A DNA stretch of 44,758 nucleotides from an uncultured Acidobacteriota bacterium (GTDB taxonomy: Bacteria; Acidobacteriota; Vicinamibacteria; Fen-336), in NCBI GenBank assembly GCA_964568755.1, contig CAZMRX010000003.1, positions 1-44,758 of the forward strand, in the 5' to 3' direction. The position numbers and the translations under genes are program-made. How positions within the stretch are numbered: position 1 is the first letter of the stretch; every line of letters starts with the position of its first letter. Shown here in pieces: positions 13,960 through 36,941 of this stretch. The notes under the pieces are model-generated. The model did not search any database. It was given only the letters and a program-made list of their open reading frames with translations, and had not been told where the DNA came from.

Positions 13960-16900
13960 GTGGCCGACGAGAAGAAGCTGCGGGTGCTCCGGCCGAAGGG
14001 CCTGGGCGACAAGGCCCTGGACGTGGCCAAGGGCTTCGCGGCCGGGCTGACGCAGCTCCCCGAGGGCGTCGCTGGCGCCGCTGAGGCGGCCGGCGAGCAG
14101 ACCTCGCGCGCGCTCGAGGGCCCCTCGAACCTGCGCGTGCTGCGGCCCGGCCCGTCGGTGAGCTTCCCCGGCTCGCGCCTGGTGGGTGCGGGCGCGCGGC
14201 GCGCGGCCGGCGTGGCCGGCGGGGTGCGCCGGGCGGTGGGCGAGTTCACCCAGGAGAACCTGGCGGGCGAGGGACTCGCCTACCAGACGGGCCAGGGCCT
14301 CGGCTCCTCGGTTGGCATCGGTGGCACGGCGGCGCTGCTCACGACCGTGGGCGTGCCTCCAGTGGCGTCCGTGGCCGCGCTCGGGAGCATGCTCGAGGCG
14401 TCGAGCGCCTACCGAGAAGTGCTGAGGACGGCCAAGGACCCGAAGAGCGAAGCCGCACAGGATGCGGCCTTCGCGGCCTTCGTGGCCGGTGGGGCGATCG
14501 GCACGACCGAGGCGGTGCCTCTTGCCGGCCAGGTCGGCCGCTTCCTCGGGCGCGCGGACCGGGCCACGGGCGGGGCGCTGCGAAAGGCCCTCATCTCGGC
14601 CGGCGCGGAGGCCACCGAGGAGCTCGTCCAGGAGAACGTCCAGAACGTCCTGAGCGACGTGGCGGCCCGGTACGTGAGCAAGCACGACCAGGAGCGCGAC
14701 GTGCTCGGGGGCCTCCTTCAGCGCTGGCAGAGCGGCGAGGCGTGGCTTCCCCCGGTGGTCGCGGGCGGGCTGCTCTCGGCGGTGGCGAGCGCGGGCGAGC
14801 ACCGGCGCTCGACGACCAGCGTGGCGGGGTCAAGAACCGGCATGACCGGCCCGGAAGGGCCCGCCAGCGAGGGCGTGGCACCGAGCTCGACGACCAGCCA
14901 GAGAACGACCACGGAACGACCAGCCAGCGACCAACATGGATCGCGCGTGGATGCCCTTGGATCGATCCTGCCCGTCGAGCCGGCGCGGCCCGCATCCGAG
15001 AACGCGCGCCGGGTCGCGGCGCGCTTCATCGGCGAGCAGGGTGCCCAGGGCGCCGTGGTGCCCCCCCGCACCACGCACCAGCGCCGCGCGGCCGAGTTCT
15101 TCCGCCAGCGCGGCGCCGAGGCGGTCTTCATCGAGAGCCAGTCCGGCGAGCTCGCGGCCCCGGCCGGGTACTCATCGGGGGTGGCCGTCTTCGACGCGAA
15201 CCTCCCAGGCGAGCAGCTCGAGCGCCGGCTGGTGCTGCACGAGGCCCAGCACCACCTGCGGGCCCTGGTGGCCAAGGACGAGGAGACCTTCGCCGGCCTG
15301 GCCGCGGAGCTCGAGGGCGGCCTGCGCACGCTCGACCCCCAGGGGATGAAGAAGATCGAGGCCCGCGTCCGCGAGCAGTACGCGGCCCGCGGGCTCGACG
15401 AAGCCGGGGTCGCGGACGAGGTGGTGTCCAACTACCTCGAGGAGTTCGGGGCCCTGCTGTTCGAGGGCGCGCGCTTCGAGCAGGCCCTCGCGCAGCCCGG
15501 CCTCGGGCGCCGCCTGGTGGACGCGGTGCTGCGCCTCATCAAGAAGGCCGGGATCAAGATCGAGACCCTGACCGAGCGCCGACTGCGGAAGCTGCGCGAC
15601 CAGCTCGCGGAGACCGACATCGAGAAGGGAGCCGACCCCGCGACCATCCCGGCCATCGCCCGCACCGTGCGCAAGGTGTTCGACGAGCTTGCACAGCGGG
15701 CCGTTCCACGTGAAACTTCGCAACAACTTGACGCGCCGATCACCAGTCCGCCGGCCGAAGCCGCAGGCCCGACTCTGCTCGAGGTGCCGCCGGGCCCCGA
15801 AGCGGGGGACCAGCGGGATGTGCTCGGATTGCGTCAACGCGAACAGCCGGGAGTGGCGCCGGGCGCACCTCTGGACGTACCTGCCGCTCGAGGGCCTCAA
15901 GGTCCGCGGGTGCCAGGGGATCGGGGCGGCGCGCGCGGAGTGCGGACACCCCGCGGTGCTCTACCTGGATCCGACGCTGCGTCAGGGGCGGCGCCGCGTG
16001 CGCGTGCGCGTGGTGCCGCGGTGGTTCTGCCCGCAGCACCTCATGCTGCACCTGAGCGAGTCGCTCGGCCGGCTGGCCGAGCCGCTGCTCGACCGGCCGA
16101 GCTGAAAACCCCGGCGGCCGGTGTTCGATCCGCGCCGTCGGGCGACCGACGCGGAAAGACCGAAGCCGCCGGGGCCTCCTCCGCGGAGGTCGAGGTCGCC
16201 ACCTTCGACGAGTACGCGGCGAAGCGCGGCGTGCCGTCCAGCGCGCCATCCTTCCCAGAGGCGCACCGAGCTCCTGGCGGCGTGTCGAAGGCGTCGGCGA
16301 AGGCGATGGCAGGCCGGATCGCCAAGGCGAGCGCGGCGTGGCAGGCGCAGCGCGCCTCCATGCTGCGCGAGTACAAGGCCGCGGTGAAGGCGGGCACGGT
16401 GCGCGCTCCGAGCCGCGCCGAGAGGCTCACGGAGACCGCGCGCGGAGAAGGCCCGGCGGCCGAAGCGGCGCGGCGCCTGCTCGAGAGACAGCGACACACC
16501 CAAGCGCTGAAAGCCCTGCGCGGGCGGCTCGCCGAAGCCAAGAAGTTCGAGCCGAAGTACAACCAGGCCCTCCGGCAAATTGCGCGCAAGGTCGGGACCT
16601 CGCACCCGCCGGCCCTGCCGGGGTTGAAGAAGCTCAAGCGAGCCCTGGCGAAGGTGATGTCCGACTACGCCGGCGACGCGACCAGGATCCGCGACCTGGT
16701 GCGGGGCACGGTCGTCGTGGACACCATCGAGCAGGCCGAGCGCGCGGTGGCTCTGCTGCGCAAGCGCTTCGGGGCGCCCGTCAAGTTCCGCGACTTCTCG
16801 ATGCCGATCCCAGGCACGGGATACCGCGACATCTTCATGCAGTTCGAGCGGGCTGGCGGGCTCGCCTTCGAGGTACAGGTCAACGTGCCGGCGATGCTCG

Positions 16901-19900
16901 AGGCCAAGGAGCGCATGCACGCGCTCTACGAGGAGTGGCAGAACATCCAGCGCAGCGAAGGAGCGCGGTCCGTCGAAGATCAGGCGCGCAGCGACCAGCT
17001 CGAAGCGCAGCAGCGCGAGGTCTACGGGGAGGTTTGGGCGCGGGCCCTTGAAGCCACGCGGGCGAGCTCGACCACTACGAGGTCGCGGAAGGCTTCCTCG
17101 GAGATGGGCACGCCGTCCGAATCGACGGTCGAGCAATCAAAGCGCCGGCCGTCCTCGGAATCCCAGGCCGTGCAGACGGAGGACGCAGACCTCGACACGG
17201 GGAGGTCGTTGCAGTCCCAGAAGGTCGTCCCGGGCGGAAATGAAGAGGGGAGAGGCATCAGCAGTAGCCTAGCCGATGCATCGGCTGTAGCGAAGGAGAA
17301 AAACAAGGGAAAACCAGTAGAAATCCAGGCGCGACTCGGGCGCCAGGCCACGGTCGAGCTCGCGGACGGAGACTCCCTGCCGGTCACCTACGCCCTGGTC
17401 GAGGCGGAAGCCCTTGTCCCGAGCCACGACGCGCGCCGCGGCTTCGCCCCGAACGAGGGCGGCGACCTGAACGAGCGCCCTTACAACGATCCCGTCGAGG
17501 GCGCCCCCATGCGCGAGACCGTGCGCGGGATCGCGGACCGGCCCAAGGTCTCGCTGCTCACGACCGACACGCCTTCGCCGGTGGACGGCCCCCCGATCGT
17601 GACCACGACCGGCGTGGTGCTGGGCGGGAACGCCCGGACCATGGGGATGCAGCTCGCCTACTCCCGCGCGGACGCCCCCGCAGCGGCCCTGCGCGCGGGC
17701 ATGGTCGAGGCGGCGGCCCGGTTCGGCATCGACCCCCAGGGGATGGCAAACCCCGTCCTGGTGCGCGTGGTGGAGGCTGGACGCGAGGGCAAGCGCGGCG
17801 AGCTGTCGCGGGTCCTCAACGAGTCGCTGACCACCGGCAAGGGCGCCACGACCGAAGCGGTCTCGCGCGGGCAGAAGGTCACGCCCGAGGTGGCCACCCA
17901 GGTCGCGCGGCTGCTCGGCGACGGGACCCTGCGCGAGGCCCTCGGCGAGGCCAGCAAGGCGAACCAGGTGGCGCGGCTGATGATCCAGGCCGGCGCGCTG
18001 ACACAGCGCGACCTGGCGGAGCTCTTCAACCCGACCACCGGGATTCCGACCGCGGCCGGCAAGCAGGTGATCGAGGACGCGCTGCTCGGCTCGGTGATCC
18101 AGGACGTGCGCACCCTCTCGGAGACGCCGCCCTCCACGCGCAACGTCCTGCTGCGCTCCCTACCGTCGCTGGTGACGCTGCGCGGGCGCGTGGTGGGCTT
18201 CGACACGACCATGCGCAACGTGGCCCAGGGCGCGGCTGAGGTGGCGCAGACGGGCGCCCCGCTCAAGGACGTGCTCGGCCAGCAGGTCATGCCGGGGATC
18301 GACGTTGGCTGGAAGGGCGACGAGCTCGCGGTGGGGATCCTGCGCTCGATCCTGAGCGAGAAGCCCACGCGCATCTCCGAGCGCTTCGCCGGGCTCGCGC
18401 AGCGCGCGCGCGACATGGCGGCGGGCCAGGCGTCCTTCATCCCCGAGGATAACCTGCCGATCCGCCAGCAGCTCGAGAGCGAGTTCCGCTTCGCGCTGGC
18501 CAAGGGGGCCCGCACGCGCCCGCTCATCGAGCGGCTCGAGCGCGCCGAGACCGCAGGCGTCGGCGTGCTGGTAAGGCCCTCAAGCCCGGCCGAGCGCGCC
18601 TTCCTCGAGCACGCGGAGGAAGCCGGGCTCGCCGTGCAGGTGAAGGGCGGCGCGTGGCGCCTCGAGGCGGCGGACGTGCCCTGGGCCCTGGGCCTCGACC
18701 GAATCGAGCGCATCCTGCGCGCCAAGCGCGCGCGTGGGGTAGAGTTCGTCCATGCCCCAGGATCCCAAGCGCCGACCCTCGAAAGGCTACGCGGCGGGCC
18801 CCTCGCCCGAAGAACTGCGCGTGGACCCGCGGCATCGCCCGGTCTCGGTCTCGCGCATCAGCCGCCCGCGGCCCTCCGCACCTTCATCCAAGAAACGGTA
18901 GTCTGCGAGGGCCCCGAGCTCGCCATCGAGCCGGGGCACATCCACTCGACCCTGCCGGCGGACTACAGCGAGCCGACGGTGCCCCCGTTTGCGCTCGCTG
19001 GCCAGCGCCTCGGTCCCGACGAGATCCTCGCGCGCGTTCCGGCGTCGCCGATCATGGAACGCCTGTTCGTGGTGCAGGTCGCCAGGGACAGCACGGTGTT
19101 GTCGAGCTCGATCTTCAGCGTGGGATCCACAGCCGCGGCGCTCGTGCCGTCCACGCGCGAGCAGATGGAAGCGATGCTCGTCCCTCCGATGTCGGGCGAT
19201 CGGGTGATGTTCATCCACAACCACCCGAGCGGGGACCCGACCGTGAGCGTCGAAGACAGCATCTCGACCAACACGATGCGCCGAGCGGTGGACGCTTGGG
19301 CCCGCAGCGTCTCGGTGCCTTCGTACTTCGCGGTGGTCGGCAAAGACGCGGCGAACCACTACACGCGCACGCAAACGGTGCCCGCGACGGTCAAGACGCT
19401 CTACCCGCTCGAGCGCTTCCGTAGGCTTCTGTTCCCGCGCGGCCCCGAGCAGCTGCGGGCCATCGCGCAGCGTATCACACCGACCAACTCGAAGGCTGTC
19501 CTCGGCATCATGTTCACGGGCGACCAGCTGCGCGCCGTTGTGGCGTGGGACCGGATCCCGTCCACCGATCAGCTCCACGAGCTGATGATGGCCTACGGAG
19601 GGCACGACCTGTTCCTTGGGTCGCACGACGAAGAGACCGCGGGCCTCCTCTGGGAAACGCAGCTCCCGCCCTACGTGCGCGACGTGTTCACGCCCCAGGG
19701 CTACAGCGGGCCGCGGCGGAGCACGGGAGAACACCTCCACGACGTGCTGCTCGAATACGATCCGCGCGCTGATGCGGTGCGCTCGACGGCCAAGGCCGGC
19801 GTGCCCAAGAAGGGTGACACGCCGGGCCAGGCGATCATGTTCTCGCTGGGCTCCTCCTGGCGCCGCCAGTGGACATCCGAGGGGAACCTCCCGCGCCCCT

Positions 19901-22377
19901 TCTTCGACGCGAAGATCGCACGGGACGGCTGGATCAACGCCCACTTGCAGCGCTCCCGCGACCTCGACGTGGACCTGCGCCGGGCGATCAAGGCCGCATG
20001 GGGCCGCCCCACGCCCGCCCAGGTCGAGCAGATCGACCAGGCGTTCAAGTCGCGCGTGCAGCTCGCGGCCCTGCCGGAGGAACTCCGCGATCCCGTGCGC
20101 GCCATGCGCGAGCACGTCAAGGAGCTCTCGATGCACCTCATCGACAGCGGTGCGATCGAGGGCGAGCTCGTGCCCACGGTGCTCGCCAACCTCGACTTCT
20201 ACGCGACGCGCAGCTACCGCGTGTTCGACGACCCCAAGTGGGCCGAGCGCGTGCCTCTCGAGGTGCGCAACCGGGCGAAGGCCCTGCTGCGGATGTCGCG
20301 GCCGAAGGACACGGACAACCAGATCGAGCGCTACATCAACGCCCTGCTATACGAGGGCAAGGCCGCGCAGAACCCCATCGCCGTGCTCGCGCGCGGCGGC
20401 AAGCTGGGCTCGAAGGACCTGTCGATCACGAAGCGCCGCGAGGCGATCGCGCCCGAAATCCGCGCCCTGTTCGGCGAGTACACCGATGCGCGCGTCAACT
20501 ACGCCCGCTCGGTGGCCAAGATGGCTTTCCTCGTGGGAAACCACCAGTTCCTCGGCGAGGTCAAGGCCAAGGGCCTCGGGAAGTTCATCTGGCAGAAGGA
20601 CGACCCCAACGTCCCACCGGAGGCGAAGGCGACGCTCGCGGCCGACGAGACCAGCGTGCTCTTCCCGCTCAACGGGCTGGTGACCACGACCGACGTGGAT
20701 CAGGCGTTCCGCGACCACGCCGAGCGCGAGCAACTCCCGGCCTGGGCGCAGGCGTGGCTCACGCTCAACGCCGTGGCCAAGTACGGCAAAACCGTCGGGT
20801 CGGTGATGACCCAACTGCGCAACTGGACCGGCAACGTGCCCTTCGCCATGGCGCAGGGCCACTGGCGTGCGCATCGGCTGGTGGACGGGGTGCGCGCCGT
20901 GGCGACCACCTTCCACCGGATGAACGACCAGACCTGGCGCGACTACTACCGGAACGCTCTCCGCATGGGGGTGATCCACGAGAGCGCGAACGCGGGCGAG
21001 CTCCGAGCGGTGCTCGAGGACGTGTGGAGCGGGAGCCAGTCCATCGCACACCCGGAGAGTGCGCGCGGGCGCGTGCGCCGCGGCCTCGAGTTCCTCACGC
21101 GCGTGTACTCCGCGGGCGACGACTTCTGGAAGGTCTACGCCTGGGAGAACGAGAAGGCGCGCTACCGCAAGGCCGGCGTCTTCGCGTCCGAGGCTGAGCT
21201 CGAGCGCGAGACCGCGCGCATGGTCCGCAACACGTACCCGACCTACTCGCTCGTGCCCCGCGCCGTGCGCAAGCTGCGACGCTTCCCGCTGCTCGGCACC
21301 TTCGTCTCCTTCCCCTGGGAGGTCATGCGCACGACCAAGAACACGCTGGCGCTGATGGCGAGCGAGCTCAAGAGCTCCAACCGGCGCGTGCGGTTCATCG
21401 GCGCGCAGCGACTCGTGGGCTCCCTGGCGGCGGCCTCCTGGTCGGGCCTGCTGGCGACCTACGCGCGCCACCTGCTCGGCATGACGGACGACGAGGACGA
21501 GGAGGCGCGCGAGCTGCTCCCGGTGTGGAACAAGAACTCGGACATCCTCTGGCTCGGCCGCGACGAGAAGGGCAACCGGACCTTCGTGGACCTGTCCTAC
21601 ACGGACCCGTACAAGTACCTCAAGACCCCGCTGATGGCGCTCTTGCGCGGCGAGGACTGGCAGGAGAAGCTGACGCGCAGCGTGGGCGCGCTGCTCGAGC
21701 CCTTCATGTCCGAGGAGCTGGCGACCAAGGCGGCCATCGACCTCGCGCGCAACGCGACCAGCGAGGGCCGGCGCATCTGGAACCCGGCCGCGCCGCCCGA
21801 GGACCAGCTCGCGGACGTGGTGGCTCACATCGGCAAGGCGCTCGAACCGGGCACGCTCACGAGCCTGCGGCGGATCTACCTCGGCACGCAGGGCAAGGTG
21901 GTCGGGACGAAGGCGTACGACCCCCGCATCGAGACTCTGGCGATGACCACGGGCGTGCGCGTCTCCTCGCTCGACCTGGCGCAGGGGGTCTCCTACAAGG
22001 CGCGTGACTTCGAAGCCGCGTGGGGTGACGCCACGCGCATGCTGACGGGCGTGGTCGGGCACCGTGGCCAGGTGTCCGACGCCGAGGTCGAGGAGGCGTA
22101 CCGCGACTCCGAGCTCGTGCGCAGGAAGGCGTGGGATCGGCTCCAGAAGGCAATCAGCGCCGCGCGCGCCCTCGGGCTCGTGGATCGTGAGCTCCTCGCG
22201 CGCCTGGAACCAAACCTTGGGAAGGCGCGCGCGCTCGAAGCACTGCGCGGCAGGTACGCCGGCTACAGCCCCAGCTCCTCGTTCCTCTCGATCCAGTCTC
22301 GCGGCGCCAGCGCGTCCGAGCGGCGCGAGTTCTTGCGTCGCGGCCACTTGGTTCGCAGGTTGGCTCTATCCCGATGA
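13960..22377 (+). CDS. Giant multi-domain ('polyvalent') internal virion / ejection protein (2805 aa), gp16-position
   Basis: Single open frame of 8.4 kb with strong third-position G/C, except across ~15.69-16.10 kb and, more weakly, 18.75-18.90 kb. The N-terminal ~290 aa contain Gly/Ala-rich hydrophobic segments (GIGGTAALLTTVGVPPVASVAALGSML; AFAAFVAGGAIG; LPPVVAGGLLSAVASAG). Behind them lie HExxH, RelA/SpoT-like, ParB-like and RadC/JAB modules and a ~850-aa C-terminal region. Confidence 0.8.
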   Translation: MADEKKLRVLRPKGLGDKALDVAKGFAAGLTQLPEGVAGAAEAAGEQTSRALEGPSNLRVLRPGPSVSFPGSRLVGAGARRAAGVAGGVRRAVGEFTQENLAGEGLAYQTGQGLGSSVGIGGTAALLTTVGVPPVASVAALGSMLEASSAYREVLRTAKDPKSEAAQDAAFAAFVAGGAIGTTEAVPLAGQVGRFLGRADRATGGALRKALISAGAEATEELVQENVQNVLSDVAARYVSKHDQERDVLGGLLQRWQSGEAWLPPVVAGGLLSAVASAGEHRRSTTSVAGSRTGMTGPEGPASEGVAPSSTTSQRTTTERPASDQHGSRVDALGSILPVEPARPASENARRVAARFIGEQGAQGAVVPPRTTHQRRAAEFFRQRGAEAVFIESQSGELAAPAGYSSGVAVFDANLPGEQLERRLVLHEAQHHLRALVAKDEETFAGLAAELEGGLRTLDPQGMKKIEARVREQYAARGLDEAGVADEVVSNYLEEFGALLFEGARFEQALAQPGLGRRLVDAVLRLIKKAGIKIETLTERRLRKLRDQLAETDIEKGADPATIPAIARTVRKVFDELAQRAVPRETSQQLDAPITSPPAEAAGPTLLEVPPGPEAGDQRDVLGLRQREQPGVAPGAPLDVPAARGPQGPRVPGDRGGARGVRTPRGALPGSDAASGAAPRARARGAAVVLPAAPHAAPERVARPAGRAAARPAELKTPAAGVRSAPSGDRRGKTEAAGASSAEVEVATFDEYAAKRGVPSSAPSFPEAHRAPGGVSKASAKAMAGRIAKASAAWQAQRASMLREYKAAVKAGTVRAPSRAERLTETARGEGPAAEAARRLLERQRHTQALKALRGRLAEAKKFEPKYNQALRQIARKVGTSHPPALPGLKKLKRALAKVMSDYAGDATRIRDLVRGTVVVDTIEQAERAVALLRKRFGAPVKFRDFSMPIPGTGYRDIFMQFERAGGLAFEVQVNVPAMLEAKERMHALYEEWQNIQRSEGARSVEDQARSDQLEAQQREVYGEVWARALEATRASSTTTRSRKASSEMGTPSESTVEQSKRRPSSESQAVQTEDADLDTGRSLQSQKVVPGGNEEGRGISSSLADASAVAKEKNKGKPVEIQARLGRQATVELADGDSLPVTYALVEAEALVPSHDARRGFAPNEGGDLNERPYNDPVEGAPMRETVRGIADRPKVSLLTTDTPSPVDGPPIVTTTGVVLGGNARTMGMQLAYSRADAPAAALRAGMVEAAARFGIDPQGMANPVLVRVVEAGREGKRGELSRVLNESLTTGKGATTEAVSRGQKVTPEVATQVARLLGDGTLREALGEASKANQVARLMIQAGALTQRDLAELFNPTTGIPTAAGKQVIEDALLGSVIQDVRTLSETPPSTRNVLLRSLPSLVTLRGRVVGFDTTMRNVAQGAAEVAQTGAPLKDVLGQQVMPGIDVGWKGDELAVGILRSILSEKPTRISERFAGLAQRARDMAAGQASFIPEDNLPIRQQLESEFRFALAKGARTRPLIERLERAETAGVGVLVRPSSPAERAFLEHAEEAGLAVQVKGGAWRLEAADVPWALGLDRIERILRAKRARGVEFVHAPGSQAPTLERLRGGPLARRTARGPAASPGLGLAHQPPAALRTFIQETVVCEGPELAIEPGHIHSTLPADYSEPTVPPFALAGQRLGPDEILARVPASPIMERLFVVQVARDSTVLSSSIFSVGSTAAALVPSTREQMEAMLVPPMSGDRVMFIHNHPSGDPTVSVEDSISTNTMRRAVDAWARSVSVPSYFAVVGKDAANHYTRTQTVPATVKTLYPLERFRRLLFPRGPEQLRAIAQRITPTNSKAVLGIMFTGDQLRAVVAWDRIPSTDQLHELMMAYGGHDLFLGSHDEETAGLLWETQLPPYVRDVFTPQGYSGPRRSTGEHLHDVLLEYDPRADAVRSTAKAGVPKKGDTPGQAIMFSLGSSWRRQWTSEGNLPRPFFDAKIARDGWINAHLQRSRDLDVDLRRAIKAAWGRPTPAQVEQIDQAFKSRVQLAALPEELRDPVRAMREHVKELSMHLIDSGAIEGELVPTVLANLDFYATRSYRVFDDPKWAERVPLEVRNRAKALLRMSRPKDTDNQIERYINALLYEGKAAQNPIAVLARGGKLGSKDLSITKRREAIAPEIRALFGEYTDARVNYARSVAKMAFLVGNHQFLGEVKAKGLGKFIWQKDDPNVPPEAKATLAADETSVLFPLNGLVTTTDVDQAFRDHAEREQLPAWAQAWLTLNAVAKYGKTVGSVMTQLRNWTGNVPFAMAQGHWRAHRLVDGVRAVATTFHRMNDQTWRDYYRNALRMGVIHESANAGELRAVLEDVWSGSQSIAHPESARGRVRRGLEFLTRVYSAGDDFWKVYAWENEKARYRKAGVFASEAELERETARMVRNTYPTYSLVPRAVRKLRRFPLLGTFVSFPWEVMRTTKNTLALMASELKSSNRRVRFIGAQRLVGSLAAASWSGLLATYARHLLGMTDDEDEEARELLPVWNKNSDILWLGRDEKGNRTFVDLSYTDPYKYLKTPLMALLRGEDWQEKLTRSVGALLEPFMSEELATKAAIDLARNATSEGRRIWNPAAPPEDQLADVVAHIGKALEPGTLTSLRRIYLGTQGKVVGTKAYDPRIETLAMTTGVRVSSLDLAQGVSYKARDFEAAWGDATRMLTGVVGHRGQVSDAEVEEAYRDSELVRRKAWDRLQKAISAARALGLVDRELLARLEPNLGKARALEALRGRYAGYSPSSSFLSIQSRGASASERREFLRRGHLVRRLALSR
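15082..15489 (+). other. Possible zincin-like metallopeptidase module (HExxH at 15238-15252)
   Basis: The motif VLHEAQHHL (H427-E-A-Q-H431) lies in a helical context. This is a motif-only call; a short HExxH can occur by chance. Confidence 0.3.
15689..16105 (+). CDS. Nested +1-frame ORF encoding a Cys-rich zinc-ribbon protein (up to 138 aa; alternative ATG at 15818 gives 95 aa)
   Basis: Between ~15.78 and 16.10 kb nearly every third position of this frame is G/C (4 exceptions in the last 96 codons by my count). Over the same span the giant-ORF frame drops to roughly 60% and encodes Pro/Gly/Arg-rich low-complexity sequence. The product contains CSRC-x11-CSDC plus further C/H pairs (ECGH.., FCPQH). 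Start codon uncertain (TTG 15689, GTG 15710, TTG 15728 or ATG 15818). Confidence 0.6.
   Translation: MHSGPFHVKLRNNLTRRSPVRRPKPQARLCSRCRRAPKRGTSGMCSDCVNANSREWRRAHLWTYLPLEGLKVRGCQGIGAARAECGHPAVLYLDPTLRQGRRRVRVRVVPRWFCPQHLMLHLSESLGRLAEPLLDRPS
16612..16944 (+). other. RelA/SpoT-homologue (small alarmone synthetase / toxSAS-like) nucleotidyltransferase domain
   Basis: Residues ~885-995 read LPGLKKLKRALAKV..IRDLVRGTVVVD..PGTGYRDIFMQF..LAFEVQVNVP..RMHALYEE. This reproduces, in order and spacing, the basic patch, the D-x-x-[GR]-x-x-V strand, the G-Y-R-x-x motif, the E-[IV]-Q-[IV] motif and the H-x-x-Y-[KE] motif of RSH synthetase domains. Confidence 0.6.
17362..17784 (+). other. ParB/sulfiredoxin-like domain (tentative)
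   Basis: The segment ..YALVEAEALVPSHD..NERPYND..IADRPKVSLL..DGPPIVTTTGVVLGGNARTMGMQLAY.. resembles the ParB-nuclease core, with GGNAR in place of the usual GxHR. Confidence 0.3.
19027..19359 (+). other. RadC-like JAB/MPN domain
   Basis: Contains the classic RadC signature FIHNHPSGDPTVSVEDSISTNTMRRA (HNHPSG at 19216 onward). Confidence 0.8.
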
Positions 22378-25998: not shown

Positions 25999-26494
25999 GC
26001 GCGCGCCGGAAATGCACGCGTACGCGCACGTCGGCGTCCTCGAGCTTCACGCCCCACGGGACCAGGATGGCGAGCGGCTGCGGAAAGCGCACCACGATCG
26101 GCAAGGCCAGGGCCGCGTTGGCCGCGGGCGCGAGCACCTCATAGATGCTCGTGGCGTCGTCGGCCGTGCGGATGTCGATCTTCTTGGCCGCGGCGTCCAG
26201 CTTGTCGATGACCAGCCCGTCGATGAGCGTGTACTCGTCGGACGCGAGCAGGCTCTCGGCCGCGATGGCCGTGGTCTCGCCGTAGCCGCCCAGCGGGTAG
26301 GCGATGGCCGTGCCTCCGGTGAAGGTGGCCCAGCAGGCGAGGTCGCTGGGCAAGACGATCGCGGGCGCCGCTGCGGGGTTCTCGTCACGGCCCGCGGGGT
26401 CGTAGCCCGTCAGGGTCGTGCCGAGCCCCAGCGAGATGGCGGGATCGAATGCGTCGGCGGGGATGACAACTCGGGGTTCCGGGGTTGCTTGCAT
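25991..26494 (-). CDS. Hypothetical protein (167 aa) between TerL and portal
   Basis: Start overlaps the TerL stop (ATGA), and its 3' end overlaps the portal start by 8 nt. Normal composition. Confidence 0.65.
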   Translation of the reverse strand: MQATPEPRVVIPADAFDPAISLGLGTTLTGYDPAGRDENPAAAPAIVLPSDLACWATFTGGTAIAYPLGGYGETTAIAAESLLASDEYTLIDGLVIDKLDAAAKKIDIRTADDATSIYEVLAPAANAALALPIVVRFPQPLAILVPWGVKLEDADVRVRVHFRRAHA

Positions 26495-28104
26495 CAGGCG
26501 GCCTCGTCGAAGCGGACATCACCATGGGCCAGCACTTGGCCCATGGAGCCGGCCTCGAATCTCGGCTTCTCGGTGGGGTCCGTCAAGTCCCTGCCCCAGG
26601 CGAACATCGCGGCGTACCGCATGGCGTCACAACCGTGGTCCTCGACCAGCGGATTCGACTCCTCCTTGATGGCCTGGCCGTCCTTGGACGCCTTCCAGAC
26701 GTACCCGGGAATCTCGTCCTCGGTACAGGTCGGAAGCCTCGAGGCCAGGATCTCCTGGTCCAGGTACTCCATCGCGTCCGAGCACAGGTAGAGCCGCGGG
26801 GCAAGCAGGGGTGCGGTCTCGCCCGTCTTCTCGGCGATGGCCCGCAGGGCCGCGCTCGGGTCCAGGCCCCAGCGCACCATGTCCCAGCCGGCTTCTCGCG
26901 CGTTCTGCGCCTCGATGACGATCCGCGCCGAGCTCCGGCCGCGCCACTCCATGATCCGGTCGTTGAGGGCCTCGATCAGATCCGGGCGCGCGGGGTCCGC
27001 CACGACCTGGCGCAGGCTGTAGCGGCGATCGAACTGGGCCACGTGCTCGGCCCACCACTCGAGCTGCTTCTCCTTCGCGTAGACCTCGTGGACGCGGTAC
27101 ATGCGCTCGAAGGCCCCGAGCACGCCCCACACCTGGAGCACGCCGGCCTTGCGGTGACCCCAGTCCATCGAGCCGAAGTACCAGTCCAGCTTGAGCTCCC
27201 CGCGGCGCTCGCCGTCCAGGTGGCGCAGGTGCTTGTCGGCCTTGAGCATCGCGGCCGGCGCGTCCCACTTGCGGTAGGTCATGTGTCGCGCGCGGTCGAA
27301 CTCGGGCCAGATTTGCCCCTCGCTCCCACACCACTCACCATCGAGCAGGCGCCGCTTTCGGGCCCCGGTGAGACCTCCGATCTTCATCAGGTACGCGGCC
27401 CCGATGGCGCTCGGGCGGTTGTTCGCGCGATCCCAGAAGACCGGGTTGTCGTCGTGGCGCGTGATGATGCGCGCCATCTGGAGCTGCCCCGGGCGCGGCT
27501 TCGGCACGAGTCCGCGCAGGATCTCGGGCACCTTCATCTCGCGCTTAGCTCGGCGATTCAGCCAATGCGAGATGTCGTCCGGGTTGGTGTCCGCGATGGC
27601 CTGATTCCAGGGCATGCGGAAGCTCCGGTTGCGCGTGAGGAGCCCTTCCCAATCGTCTTCCGTGATCTCGCGCGCCTCGAACACCACGATGATGTCGAAC
27701 TGGGTCGAAAAAAACCTCGACACCTTGTCCAGGCCGCCACAGACGATGTGGCTGGAGCCCGAGTAGGTGCGACCGTTGTAGGTCTTCGTCGCGTACGGGA
27801 ACGTGTAGCTGCGCCGGTTCTCGGGCGCCGCCGTGCCTGTCACGCACGGATGCTCGGGCCCGCCGGGGAGCACCTCCTGCTCCCAGGTCACCAGCACCGA
27901 TTCGGTCAGAGAGGCGCGCGTCTTGCGCACGAACAGGACGCGGATCCCGGGGTACGTCTCGCACAGGCCGAGCACGTACTGGAGAATCGAGCGCGTCTTG
28001 CCGGTGCCGACCGGGCCCTCAACGAGGACCTCGGAGTCTCGGCAATAGAAGAGCTGGGTGTGGCGCCCCGTTACTCGGAAGGGGTGAGCAACGAGGGCGC
28101 CCAC
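26494..28104 (-). CDS. terL: Terminase large subunit (536 aa)
   Basis: Walker A is EGPVGTGKT and Walker B-like is FDIIVVFEARE. The C-terminal RNaseH-like nuclease motifs are GSMDWG ... EDHGCDAMRYA. Confidence 0.9.
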   Translation of the reverse strand: MGALVAHPFRVTGRHTQLFYCRDSEVLVEGPVGTGKTRSILQYVLGLCETYPGIRVLFVRKTRASLTESVLVTWEQEVLPGGPEHPCVTGTAAPENRRSYTFPYATKTYNGRTYSGSSHIVCGGLDKVSRFFSTQFDIIVVFEAREITEDDWEGLLTRNRSFRMPWNQAIADTNPDDISHWLNRRAKREMKVPEILRGLVPKPRPGQLQMARIITRHDDNPVFWDRANNRPSAIGAAYLMKIGGLTGARKRRLLDGEWCGSEGQIWPEFDRARHMTYRKWDAPAAMLKADKHLRHLDGERRGELKLDWYFGSMDWGHRKAGVLQVWGVLGAFERMYRVHEVYAKEKQLEWWAEHVAQFDRRYSLRQVVADPARPDLIEALNDRIMEWRGRSSARIVIEAQNAREAGWDMVRWGLDPSAALRAIAEKTGETAPLLAPRLYLCSDAMEYLDQEILASRLPTCTEDEIPGYVWKASKDGQAIKEESNPLVEDHGCDAMRYAAMFAWGRDLTDPTEKPRFEAGSMGQVLAHGDVRFDEAA

Positions 28105-35850: not shown

Positions 35851-36684
35851 TCAGATGCCGAGCCCGAGAAGGTCGAGCTCGTGCCAGGCGGGGAGACCGA
35901 TCGGCATCACGATGCCGCTGCGGTCCTCCCAGGTGTTCGTCTTCACGCAGCGGACGTACAACTCGAGCAGCTTCTCGTACTCGATGCGGCCCTTGACGAT
36001 GGCTTCCTGCGAGAGGTGGTACACGGCCGAGGCGTAGGGCGCGGACTGCTCGTAGACCACGAACAGCCAGGTCTCGAAGCGCCGGCCGGTCGCCAGCGTC
36101 AACCCGTCGCAGTAGAAGGCCGCCTGAAGGTGCAGGCTGTAGCTGGAGATGGTGCGCGCGAAGGCGTGCGGGCTGCTCTCGCCGGTCGTGCTCTTGATGT
36201 CCACGATGATCCCCTCGTCGGCGAGCACGCGGTCCGCGCGGCCCTTGCAGCGCACGCCGGTGGCGGGGTGCCGCCAGAAAAAGGAGAGCTCGTTCTGCCC
36301 CTTGGCGTCCTCGAGCAGCACGCGCACGTTGGGGCGCGAGCGCACCGATTCGGCCAGCTCCTTCGTGGCGCGCCCCTGGTCCTCGGTGAGGCAGGTCCGC
36401 TCGGTGATGGTGTCGCGCCATTCCTTCCACACCTTCGTGCGCCGGTCGGACGTGGGCCCGATCGCGTAGGCGCGCTCGAAGCGCTCGGGTTCGAGGATCG
36501 CACAGTGCGCGGCCTTGCCGGCCAGCATGGCGTCCGTCTCTTCCTGCGGGTTCTTGCGCCGGTGGCGCAGGTGCAGGGGCGAGCGCGCGAGCTCGAGCAG
36601 GTCGGAGCGGCTGATGGCGTCGCTCTTGAGGTAGGTGGCGAAGTCGAGGTCGGGGGCGGTGCCCTGTTCAGGGATCAGATCCAA
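35851..36684 (-). CDS. PD-(D/E)XK exonuclease (RecE/YqaJ/exonuclease VIII-like, 277 aa)
   Basis: The motifs ..GKAAHCAILEP.. and ..KGRADRVLADEGIIVDIKST.. give the D...D/E-x-K signature. The proposed TTG start at 36684 is preceded by AAGGAGGAG. The upstream part of the track ORF is junk. Confidence 0.7.
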   Translation of the reverse strand: MDLIPEQGTAPDLDFATYLKSDAISRSDLLELARSPLHLRHRRKNPQEETDAMLAGKAAHCAILEPERFERAYAIGPTSDRRTKVWKEWRDTITERTCLTEDQGRATKELAESVRSRPNVRVLLEDAKGQNELSFFWRHPATGVRCKGRADRVLADEGIIVDIKSTTGESSPHAFARTISSYSLHLQAAFYCDGLTLATGRRFETWLFVVYEQSAPYASAVYHLSQEAIVKGRIEYEKLLELYVRCVKTNTWEDRSGIVMPIGLPAWHELDLLGLGI

Positions 36685-36941
36685 AGTTGCTCCTCCTTGA
36701 GGTTCACGACGCGCGCGAGGTAGGCGCCCAGGGAGCGGTCCACAGGACCGCGGCACCCACGCGCGTCGCATTGGCGGTAGAGGTAGGCAAGGCATGGGAT
36801 CTTGGGCGCGGTCAGCCCTTGCGACTGGGCCTCTTCGGCCAGCTCGATAAGCTCCTCGCGGATCTCACGCATCGACAGGCGCAGCGCCCGACGACGCCGG
36901 GCAAACACCCCGCGGTTCCAAGCCTTGCGGTCTGAGCGCAT
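36675..36941 (-). CDS. Small basic protein (88 aa), first gene of the 36.9->23.2 kb leftward operon; possible DNA-binding regulator
   Basis: ATG ORF with good codon bias. An HTH-like stretch (FARRRRALRLSMREIREEL) and its position next to a divergent spacer suggest a regulator. Confidence 0.5.
   Translation of the reverse strand: MRSDRKAWNRGVFARRRRALRLSMREIREELIELAEEAQSQGLTAPKIPCLAYLYRQCDARGCRGPVDRSLGAYLARVVNLKEEQLWI

Follow-up and report, generated by a model that had tools for sequence, protein, structure and literature searches.

A predicted gene for a cysteine-rich protein, conserved in two phages, is embedded in the +1 frame of a giant polyvalent-type virion gene

The window analyzed here is a complete contig of 44,758 bp (CAZMRX010000003.1; 69.7% G+C), identified as phage by a large terminase, an exonuclease VIII-like gene and a head-closure-like domain. 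On its forward strand a giant gene encodes a polyvalent-type virion protein, and a much smaller open reading frame (ORF) lies wholly inside that gene, on the same strand and in its +1 frame (Table 1). Comparison with a single relative indicates that the small ORF, at 15689-16105, is a real, conserved and predicted coding overlapping gene, not an artefact. The reading favored here, held as probable though by no means assured, joins two statements: the embedded gene would be translated independently, and the giant frame would be read through across it. The gene had not been annotated before. Its kind is already known in phages, and what is new lies in the details: the class of the host gene, an orphan Cys-rich product and the apparent polarity of the two frames.

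The composition of the DNA changes frame at the embedded ORF and then changes back. Position-specific G+C content in 120-nucleotide (nt) windows shows the G/C-rich position moving from the third codon position of the giant gene to its first, which is the third position of the +1 frame, at ~15700-16105, and then returning. The initial annotation had described such a jump at ~15.69-16.10 kb, and both the switch and the return are evident in the plot. G+C at codon positions 1/2/3 of the embedded frame is 0.70/0.57/0.93 across the whole ORF and 0.75/0.53/0.96 over its last 95 codons (15818-16102). The position 1-minus-position 3 difference in the giant frame reaches 0.43 here, whereas none of 7362 other 96-codon windows, drawn from 14 confident genes of the window, exceeds 0.05. 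The length and openness of the embedded ORF are not significant alone, as confident genes contain seven +1-frame open stretches of 138 codons or more; significance attaches to the switch in composition and to the fact that it is conserved. The ORF itself is as first described, with LCSRC-x11-CSDC, ECGH and FCPQH elements ahead of its TGA.

Evidence for conservation comes from the only relative found, locus L001 (Logan SRR28285667), an independent assembly with a giant homologue of 2229 amino acids (aa), P0002. The two giant proteins are 61% identical over their N-terminal ~660 aa and 71% identical over their C-terminal ~850 aa, and the middle is replaced. L001 displays the same frame switch at the homologous place, a giant frame that is likewise open and a homologous +1 ORF in the identical arrangement. 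The two embedded proteins are 51-56% identical, and all indels between them are multiples of 3. G+C at the third codon position (GC3) of the embedded frame stays at 0.85-0.97 across both genomes despite a 36% nucleotide difference. Moreover, all seven Cys and all three Trp residues of the window's embedded protein are invariant in L001; keeping these ten residues under neutral change at the observed per-position divergence has P ~7e-6. Neither the window nor the L001 genome contains a paralogue of the embedded gene.

The same comparison shows which frame the homologues conserve: L001 retains the +1 frame, not the giant frame. An identity control was built from 48 windows of 102 codons in homologous single-coding regions, in which aa identity is tightly linear in nt identity, both for the coding frame and for each of the two off-frames. 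At the 64% nt identity of the overlap, a coding frame should by this control have an aa identity of 53% (standard deviation (sd) 3%), and an off-frame one of 39% (sd 3.6%); the observed values are 56% for the embedded frame, 38% for the giant frame and 41% for the third frame. Similarly, position 2 of the embedded frame, which is position 3 of the giant frame, is the least substituted, the opposite of what giant-frame coding would lead one to expect. Because synonymous sites are saturated (proportion of synonymous differences 0.41-0.48 in all genes), Nei-Gojobori ratios of nonsynonymous to synonymous divergence (dN/dS) are compressed; bona fide genes have ratios of 0.28-0.63 and the embedded frame one of 0.75, and over the overlap the giant frame has 1.76. 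Codon usage separates the frames as well. The mean ln p(codon|aa) of the embedded frame is -0.85 in the window and -0.95 in L001, within the range of real genes (minimum -1.25), and that of the giant frame over the overlap is -1.77 and -2.00, respectively, outside this range. This single pairwise comparison indicates that the embedded frame is under protein-level selection. The composition of the overlap appears to be dictated entirely by the embedded frame, with the giant reading as a passive by-product. The preference of the initial annotation for a continuous giant ORF with a nested gene is thereby strengthened, since the +1 ORF is conserved and evolves as coding sequence and the giant frame evolves as an off-frame.

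The embedded gene would yield a product of ~125-138 aa, with internal initiation most likely at 15689, 15710 or 15728. The first two of these candidate starts are conserved in both genomes, and the third has an ATG two codons downstream as its L001 counterpart. A Shine-Dalgarno (SD)-like element precedes the first candidate and corresponds to GAGGAAGG in L001; its SD duplex is -3.9 kcal/mol in the window and -8.0 in L001 versus a mean of -4.3 for this phage's genes. The third candidate comes directly after an A-rich (CAA)n stretch and lies in RNA that is more accessible than any other in the region, with an unpaired probability of 0.46 and 0.50 in the two genomes versus a background of 0.32 and a 95th percentile of 0.48. 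A 96-codon version of the gene, beginning at ATG 15818, does not hold up as the conserved gene: this codon has the best SD (-10.8), but it is replaced by Trp in L001, and the first conserved CxxC lies upstream of it and would be lost.

Between the candidate starts, at the 5' end of the embedded ORF, lies a conserved, accessible block of lower G+C content whose sequence is also given as GTTCCACGTGAAAC. Its flanks are only about 65-70% identical between the two phages versus 24 of 25 positions within it. Read in the giant frame, the block comprises eight consecutive codons, seven of them (window) or all eight (L001) ending in A or T in a genome with a GC3 of 93%; read in the +1 frame, it encodes FHVKL(R/H)NN with mostly preferred codons. 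The first 14 nt form a near-palindrome (GTTCCAC/GTGAAAC). Three explanations can be proposed: 1) a dual-coding constraint could hold the block constant, which favors the start at 15689, 2) the block could be an unstructured ribosome-loading site, which favors the start at 15728, and 3) the near-palindrome could be bound by a protein as an operator.

An alternative route into the +1 frame is a programmed frameshift at ~15680-15775, which the initial annotation had listed as an option. It would generate a ~700-aa product, the N-terminal HExxH module with a Cys-rich cap, beside the full-length giant. Consistent with this idea, in both genomes the open +1 frame extends upstream beyond the conserved core (the preceding stops are at 15569-15571 and, in L001, 11625-11627), and a rare CTT Leu codon followed by G, which would present TTG after a slip, is conserved at 15688-15691. 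Furthermore, ribosomes in the giant frame could be slowed by the rare A/T-ending codons that succeed one another in the 25-nt block, and a strong SD for independent initiation is missing. In prfB-type +1 frameshifting, the slippery element is CUU-UGA with an SD roughly 3 nt upstream; phage structural genes have +1 sites as well. The region resembles prfB in the +1 frame change within a long ORF, the conserved CTT-G and the SD-like element upstream, but departs from it in having no A-site stop or conserved rare codon, a different SD spacing and conserved in-frame starts. The conserved CTT-G comes without a canonical +1 signal: the A-site holds neither a stop nor a conserved hungry codon (GCA in the window, the common GCC in L001), the ~10 nt between the SD-like element and CTT-G is the spacing of initiation, +1-frame start codons are conserved at three places, and no Rfam recoding element is present. 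A frameshift is disfavored as unlikely.

Independent initiation of the embedded gene, the favored reading, leaves the giant frame to be accounted for. As first reported, this frame loses its bias over the overlap, stays open and then resumes. Pro, Gly, Ala and Arg make up 64% of its residues there versus 38% in the rest of the giant protein, and its GC3 is back to 0.9-1.0 within ~20 codons of the embedded stop in the window and immediately in L001. Past the embedded stop, the first in-frame ATG, GTG or TTG comes only after 42 codons in the window and 45 in L001 and has a poor SD, in agreement with the earlier failure to see a downstream start with an SD. Because giant-frame periodicity precedes any possible start, the giant ORF appears to be read through, not restarted. 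Ribosomes in the giant frame would cross the same DNA and produce a Pro/Gly/Ala/Arg-rich spacer whose sequence would be arbitrary, situated exactly where the conserved N-terminal module meets the swapped effector modules.

It is also conceivable, if quite unlikely, that the downstream effector and C-terminal part is a separately translated gene and that the open giant frame is a tolerated accident of GC3-rich sequence. Synonymous resampling of the embedded gene leaves the giant frame open by chance in 34-40% of cases, the giant frame shows no sequence constraint in the overlap, and the two genomes cease to be homologous exactly where the embedded gene ends, as they might at a gene or module boundary. 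However, in neither genome is the upstream giant module closed by a stop codon, which obliges ribosomes to go on, and in both genomes giant GC3 periodicity is back 42-45 codons before the first start, which has a weak SD. The arrangement is, moreover, kept in two lineages that differ at ~35-40% of residues. An intein or a self-splicing intron was rejected as an explanation of the overlap, given that the giant-frame reading is of low complexity without a domain match and that no intron RNA is found. Rfam returned no matches at E <= 1 except two at chance level, and no intron, recoding or other RNA family is among them; neither a promoter consensus nor a terminator was detected.

A very improbable possibility is that the +1 ORF is an untranslated relic, whether a fossil gene or a formerly in-frame domain that compensating indels have moved out of frame. 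At 70% GC, long ORFs are frequent in alternative frames, and this one has no homologues and no strong ribosome-binding site. A relic would have decayed to off-frame behavior, but the ORF, its seven Cys, its three Trp, coding-type aa identity and a GC3 of 0.85-0.97 are all kept across the nucleotide divergence of the two phages. An assembly or sequencing artefact, in which two compensating indels make an in-frame domain look shifted, could be entertained for a single metagenomic-type contig such as the window, but it is effectively refuted by the same switch, ORF and open giant frame in an independent, clearly different genome (61-71% protein identity); as the two assemblies are divergent, sequencing indels are excluded. 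Even taken together, the relic and the artefact have little probability.

Several observations weigh against an independently translated gene within a read-through frame. No strong SD precedes any of the conserved starts, and the evidence does not rank the three in-frame candidates, which lie within 40 nt. The selection tests amount to one pairwise comparison of two genomes with saturated synonymous sites. The giant frame would be open over the embedded gene by chance with a probability of 0.40 in the window and 0.34 in L001. The embedded protein is an orphan: neither the ~5.8 billion clustered proteins nor the 1.84 billion representatives searched include a homologue, profile searches of Pfam, NCBIfam and the PDB give no sequence match, and there is no tblastn homologue among 50,697 phage records and no true homologue in pattern and tblastn scans of viral, genome and metagenome contigs. 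Finally, its single-sequence AlphaFold2 model is poor, with a predicted local distance difference test (pLDDT) score of 46.

The embedded product is a basic protein of 14-16 kDa, with an isoelectric point of 11.5 in the window and 10.0 in L001, seven Cys residues and an Arg/Lys/Pro-rich N-terminus. The pair of CxxC motifs suggests that it is probably a zinc-binding protein, and the second Cys/His cluster may form a second metal site. The zinc ribbon proposed in the initial annotation is a motif-based prediction: CxxC-x11-CxxC is present and invariant, but neither a family match nor the model lends support to that fold. Both orthologues give weak matches, through the Cys region only, to PHROG 1035, which represents the endonuclease VII zinc region (E = 0.088 and 0.0031). 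An endonuclease VII or HNH nuclease was considered and rejected because of the 11 residues between the CxxC pairs and the lack of a DH/HNH motif or Pfam match. An o-spanin was likewise rejected: the protein has no signal peptide, lipobox or hydrophobic segment, and the host gene encodes a virion protein and is not part of a lysis cassette. Apparent relatives proved spurious. The phmmer matches among the 1.84 billion representatives are NHL-repeat proteins with repeat-inflated scores, and the one metagenome match (locus L002, 5751-6938, minus strand) is the antisense of an RCC1-repeat gene, its PRWFCPQHL-like string being the reverse complement of an RCC1 repeat.

Since the embedded frame alone shapes the composition of the overlap, the embedded gene is probably the older frame. 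In overprinted viral genes, native codon usage marks the ancestral frame (PMC3744397, PMC3494269). By this criterion the embedded frame is probably older, or ancestral-like, and the giant frame derived, a polarity drawn from two genomes that both have the arrangement. The fusion could have arisen when an upstream gene lost its stop, read across a small neighbor gene and joined the next gene in phase. A similar origin, with an upstream gene losing its stop and extending across a downstream gene, has been proposed for embedded spanins (PMC6139136). It also fits such a fusion that a GC3-rich gene has hardly any stop codons in its -1 frame. The former fusion of two genes that the initial annotation offered as an alternative fits this account as an evolutionary origin and not as a competing explanation of the present arrangement. 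A fuller version is tentative and, on balance, doubtful: after stop-loss fusion across an older zinc-protein gene, the latter would still be translated from its own start, and its product would partner the polyvalent protein; it might serve as a chaperone in assembly or packaging, counteract the toxin-like domains of that protein while still in the producer cell, or act in regulation by binding the near-palindromic block at the 5' end of its own gene.

A small phage gene within a larger one is known from the two-component spanin genes of lambda, in which Rz1 lies wholly inside Rz in the +1 frame, the arrangement seen here. As with Rz/Rz1, the embedded gene is of a type that gene callers usually leave unannotated, and the host frame encodes a flexible, low-complexity linker over the overlap. 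Unlike Rz1, the embedded protein is basic, Cys-rich, without signal peptide or lipobox, and encoded outside a lysis cassette; unlike Rz, its host is a 2805-aa virion polyvalent protein and not a membrane protein. Other overprinted phage genes include phiX174 E in D and B in A, and MS2 L. The window differs from such small overprinting phages in its double-stranded DNA (dsDNA) genome of ~45 kb, which is under no obvious size pressure. Overprinted viral genes share with the present case one structured frame with native codon usage and another that is disordered with aberrant usage (PMC3744397, PMC3494269). However, in contrast to overprinted genes of small viruses, here it is the short embedded gene that appears native and the long host ORF that appears derived and disordered.

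The locus provides a clean case of two frames coding on one strand of a large dsDNA phage, and does so in the class of polyvalent virion genes. Gene callers discard such genes, and a frame-specific GC3 plot together with one relative suffices to find them in high-GC phages. The suggested polarity, with a derived long ORF and a native short gene, is relevant to the assembly of giant multidomain phage proteins from neighboring genes, and if the stop-loss fusion is true, a high-GC genome is able to create giant fusion proteins that span the genes in between. Whatever the orphan embedded protein does, and any partnership it may form with the injected polyvalent protein, would be new to biology.

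Table 1. Positions of the embedded gene, its predicted elements, the giant host gene and other phage genes (window coordinates unless stated otherwise).
Feature	Position	Strand	Remarks
Embedded ORF	15689..16105	+	138 codons + TGA, TTG start at maximal extent; +1 frame of giant gene
Embedded ORF stop, TGA	16103..16105	+	
Homologous +1 ORF in L001	11646-12086 (L001)		tblastn E = 9e-36
Candidate start 1, TTG	15689..15691	+	Conserved in both genomes; SD-like AGGTG at 15674-15678, ~10 nt upstream
Candidate start 2, GTG	15710..15712	+	Conserved in both genomes, inside 25-nt block; weak SD
Candidate start 3, TTG	15728..15730	+	L001: ATG 11691, two codons downstream; without SD
Conserved lower-GC block, GTTCCACGTGAAACTTCGCAACAAC	15703..15727 (L001 11660-11684)	+	24/25 identical; unique in window
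CxxC-x11-CxxC pair, putative zinc knuckles	15776..15832	+	C30, C33, C45, C48; four Cys invariant in L001
Second Cys/His cluster	15911..16039	+	C75, C85, C114, H117, including invariant CPQHL; invariant columns
Giant-frame reading of overlap	15688..16107 (giant aa ~577-716)	+	Open low-complexity linker, sequence-unconstrained
Giant host gene	13960..22377	+	2805 codons/aa; polyvalent-type virion protein; domain and profile matches
Giant N-terminal module with HExxH motif	Upstream of embedded gene		
HEAQH motif	15238-15252 (giant aa 427-431)		Invariant between both phages; helical module
ddrB-ParB domain	Giant aa 1136-1271		Domain match
RadC/JAB domain	Giant aa 1700-1778		Domain match
Giant C-terminal virion-structural module	~850 aa		phrog_22602 match, E = 2e-47
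Large terminase	26494-28104	minus	
Exonuclease VIII-like gene	35851-36795	minus	

Polyvalent proteins are injected multidomain phage proteins that combine unrelated effector domains and are encoded among virion or late genes (PMC5512222). The giant host gene belongs to this class, with a ddrB-ParB domain, a RadC/JAB domain and a virion-structural C-terminus. Like the proteins described by Iyer et al. 2017 (PMC5512222), whose text contains neither the word "frameshift" nor the word "overlapping", its product is giant, multidomain and virion-associated, joining ddrB-ParB, RadC/JAB and HExxH; the gene likewise stands among late genes and has middle modules that are swapped between relatives. The HEAQH motif may belong to a zincin-like self-processing peptidase typical of the class. 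The HExxH module has no Pfam match, and its model (pLDDT 67) has as its best PDB match the Zn-protease ZMPSTE24, which is non-significant at E = 0.19. Distant relatives of the giant protein bear Zeta-toxin, SNF2, LPD and InPase domains.

Homology between the two giant proteins stops at ~16075 (aa ~705; L001 ~12030), right where the conserved core of the embedded gene gives out, and sets in again with the C-terminal virion module at ~19834 (aa 1959; L001 ~14110). The modules between these points, including ParB, RadC/JAB and others, are swapped between the phages. Because the whole middle is exchanged, the embedded gene marks a module-exchange boundary. The embedded TGA stands in a CTGA context in both genomes (16102-16105; L001 12083-12086), where a giant-frame CTG overlaps the stop; the C-terminal tails around it are non-homologous, and the shared context is probably chance (roughly 0.1).

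Giant-frame GC3 also dips, less strongly, at 18670-18940 of the window and 13871-14110 of L001, where position 1 exceeds position 3 in G+C. These dips were rejected as embedded genes, as three-frame translations reveal no plausible alternative ORF; they appear to be ordinary low-complexity inter-domain linkers. Similarly, four distant polyvalent genes display no comparable frame switch, and their GC3 dips are plain linkers without ORFs.

Searches for further relatives of the phage were made at several levels. None of the 50,697 GenBank phage records holds a relative at the DNA level or one of the N-terminal module. Scans of viral contigs for DNA patterns (a back-translation of HLWTYLP and a conserved 16-mer) returned chance matches only. 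No further relatives of the giant N-terminal module were found, although one of these searches missed the query's own proteins and is hence uninformative. Among the GenBank phage records, marine podovirus-type phages are distant matches, to the giant C-terminal module only, and this module also matches giant structural proteins of Cellulophaga, Pelagibacter and Pseudoalteromonas phages. The contig represents a poorly sampled high-GC phage lineage with one metagenomic relative.

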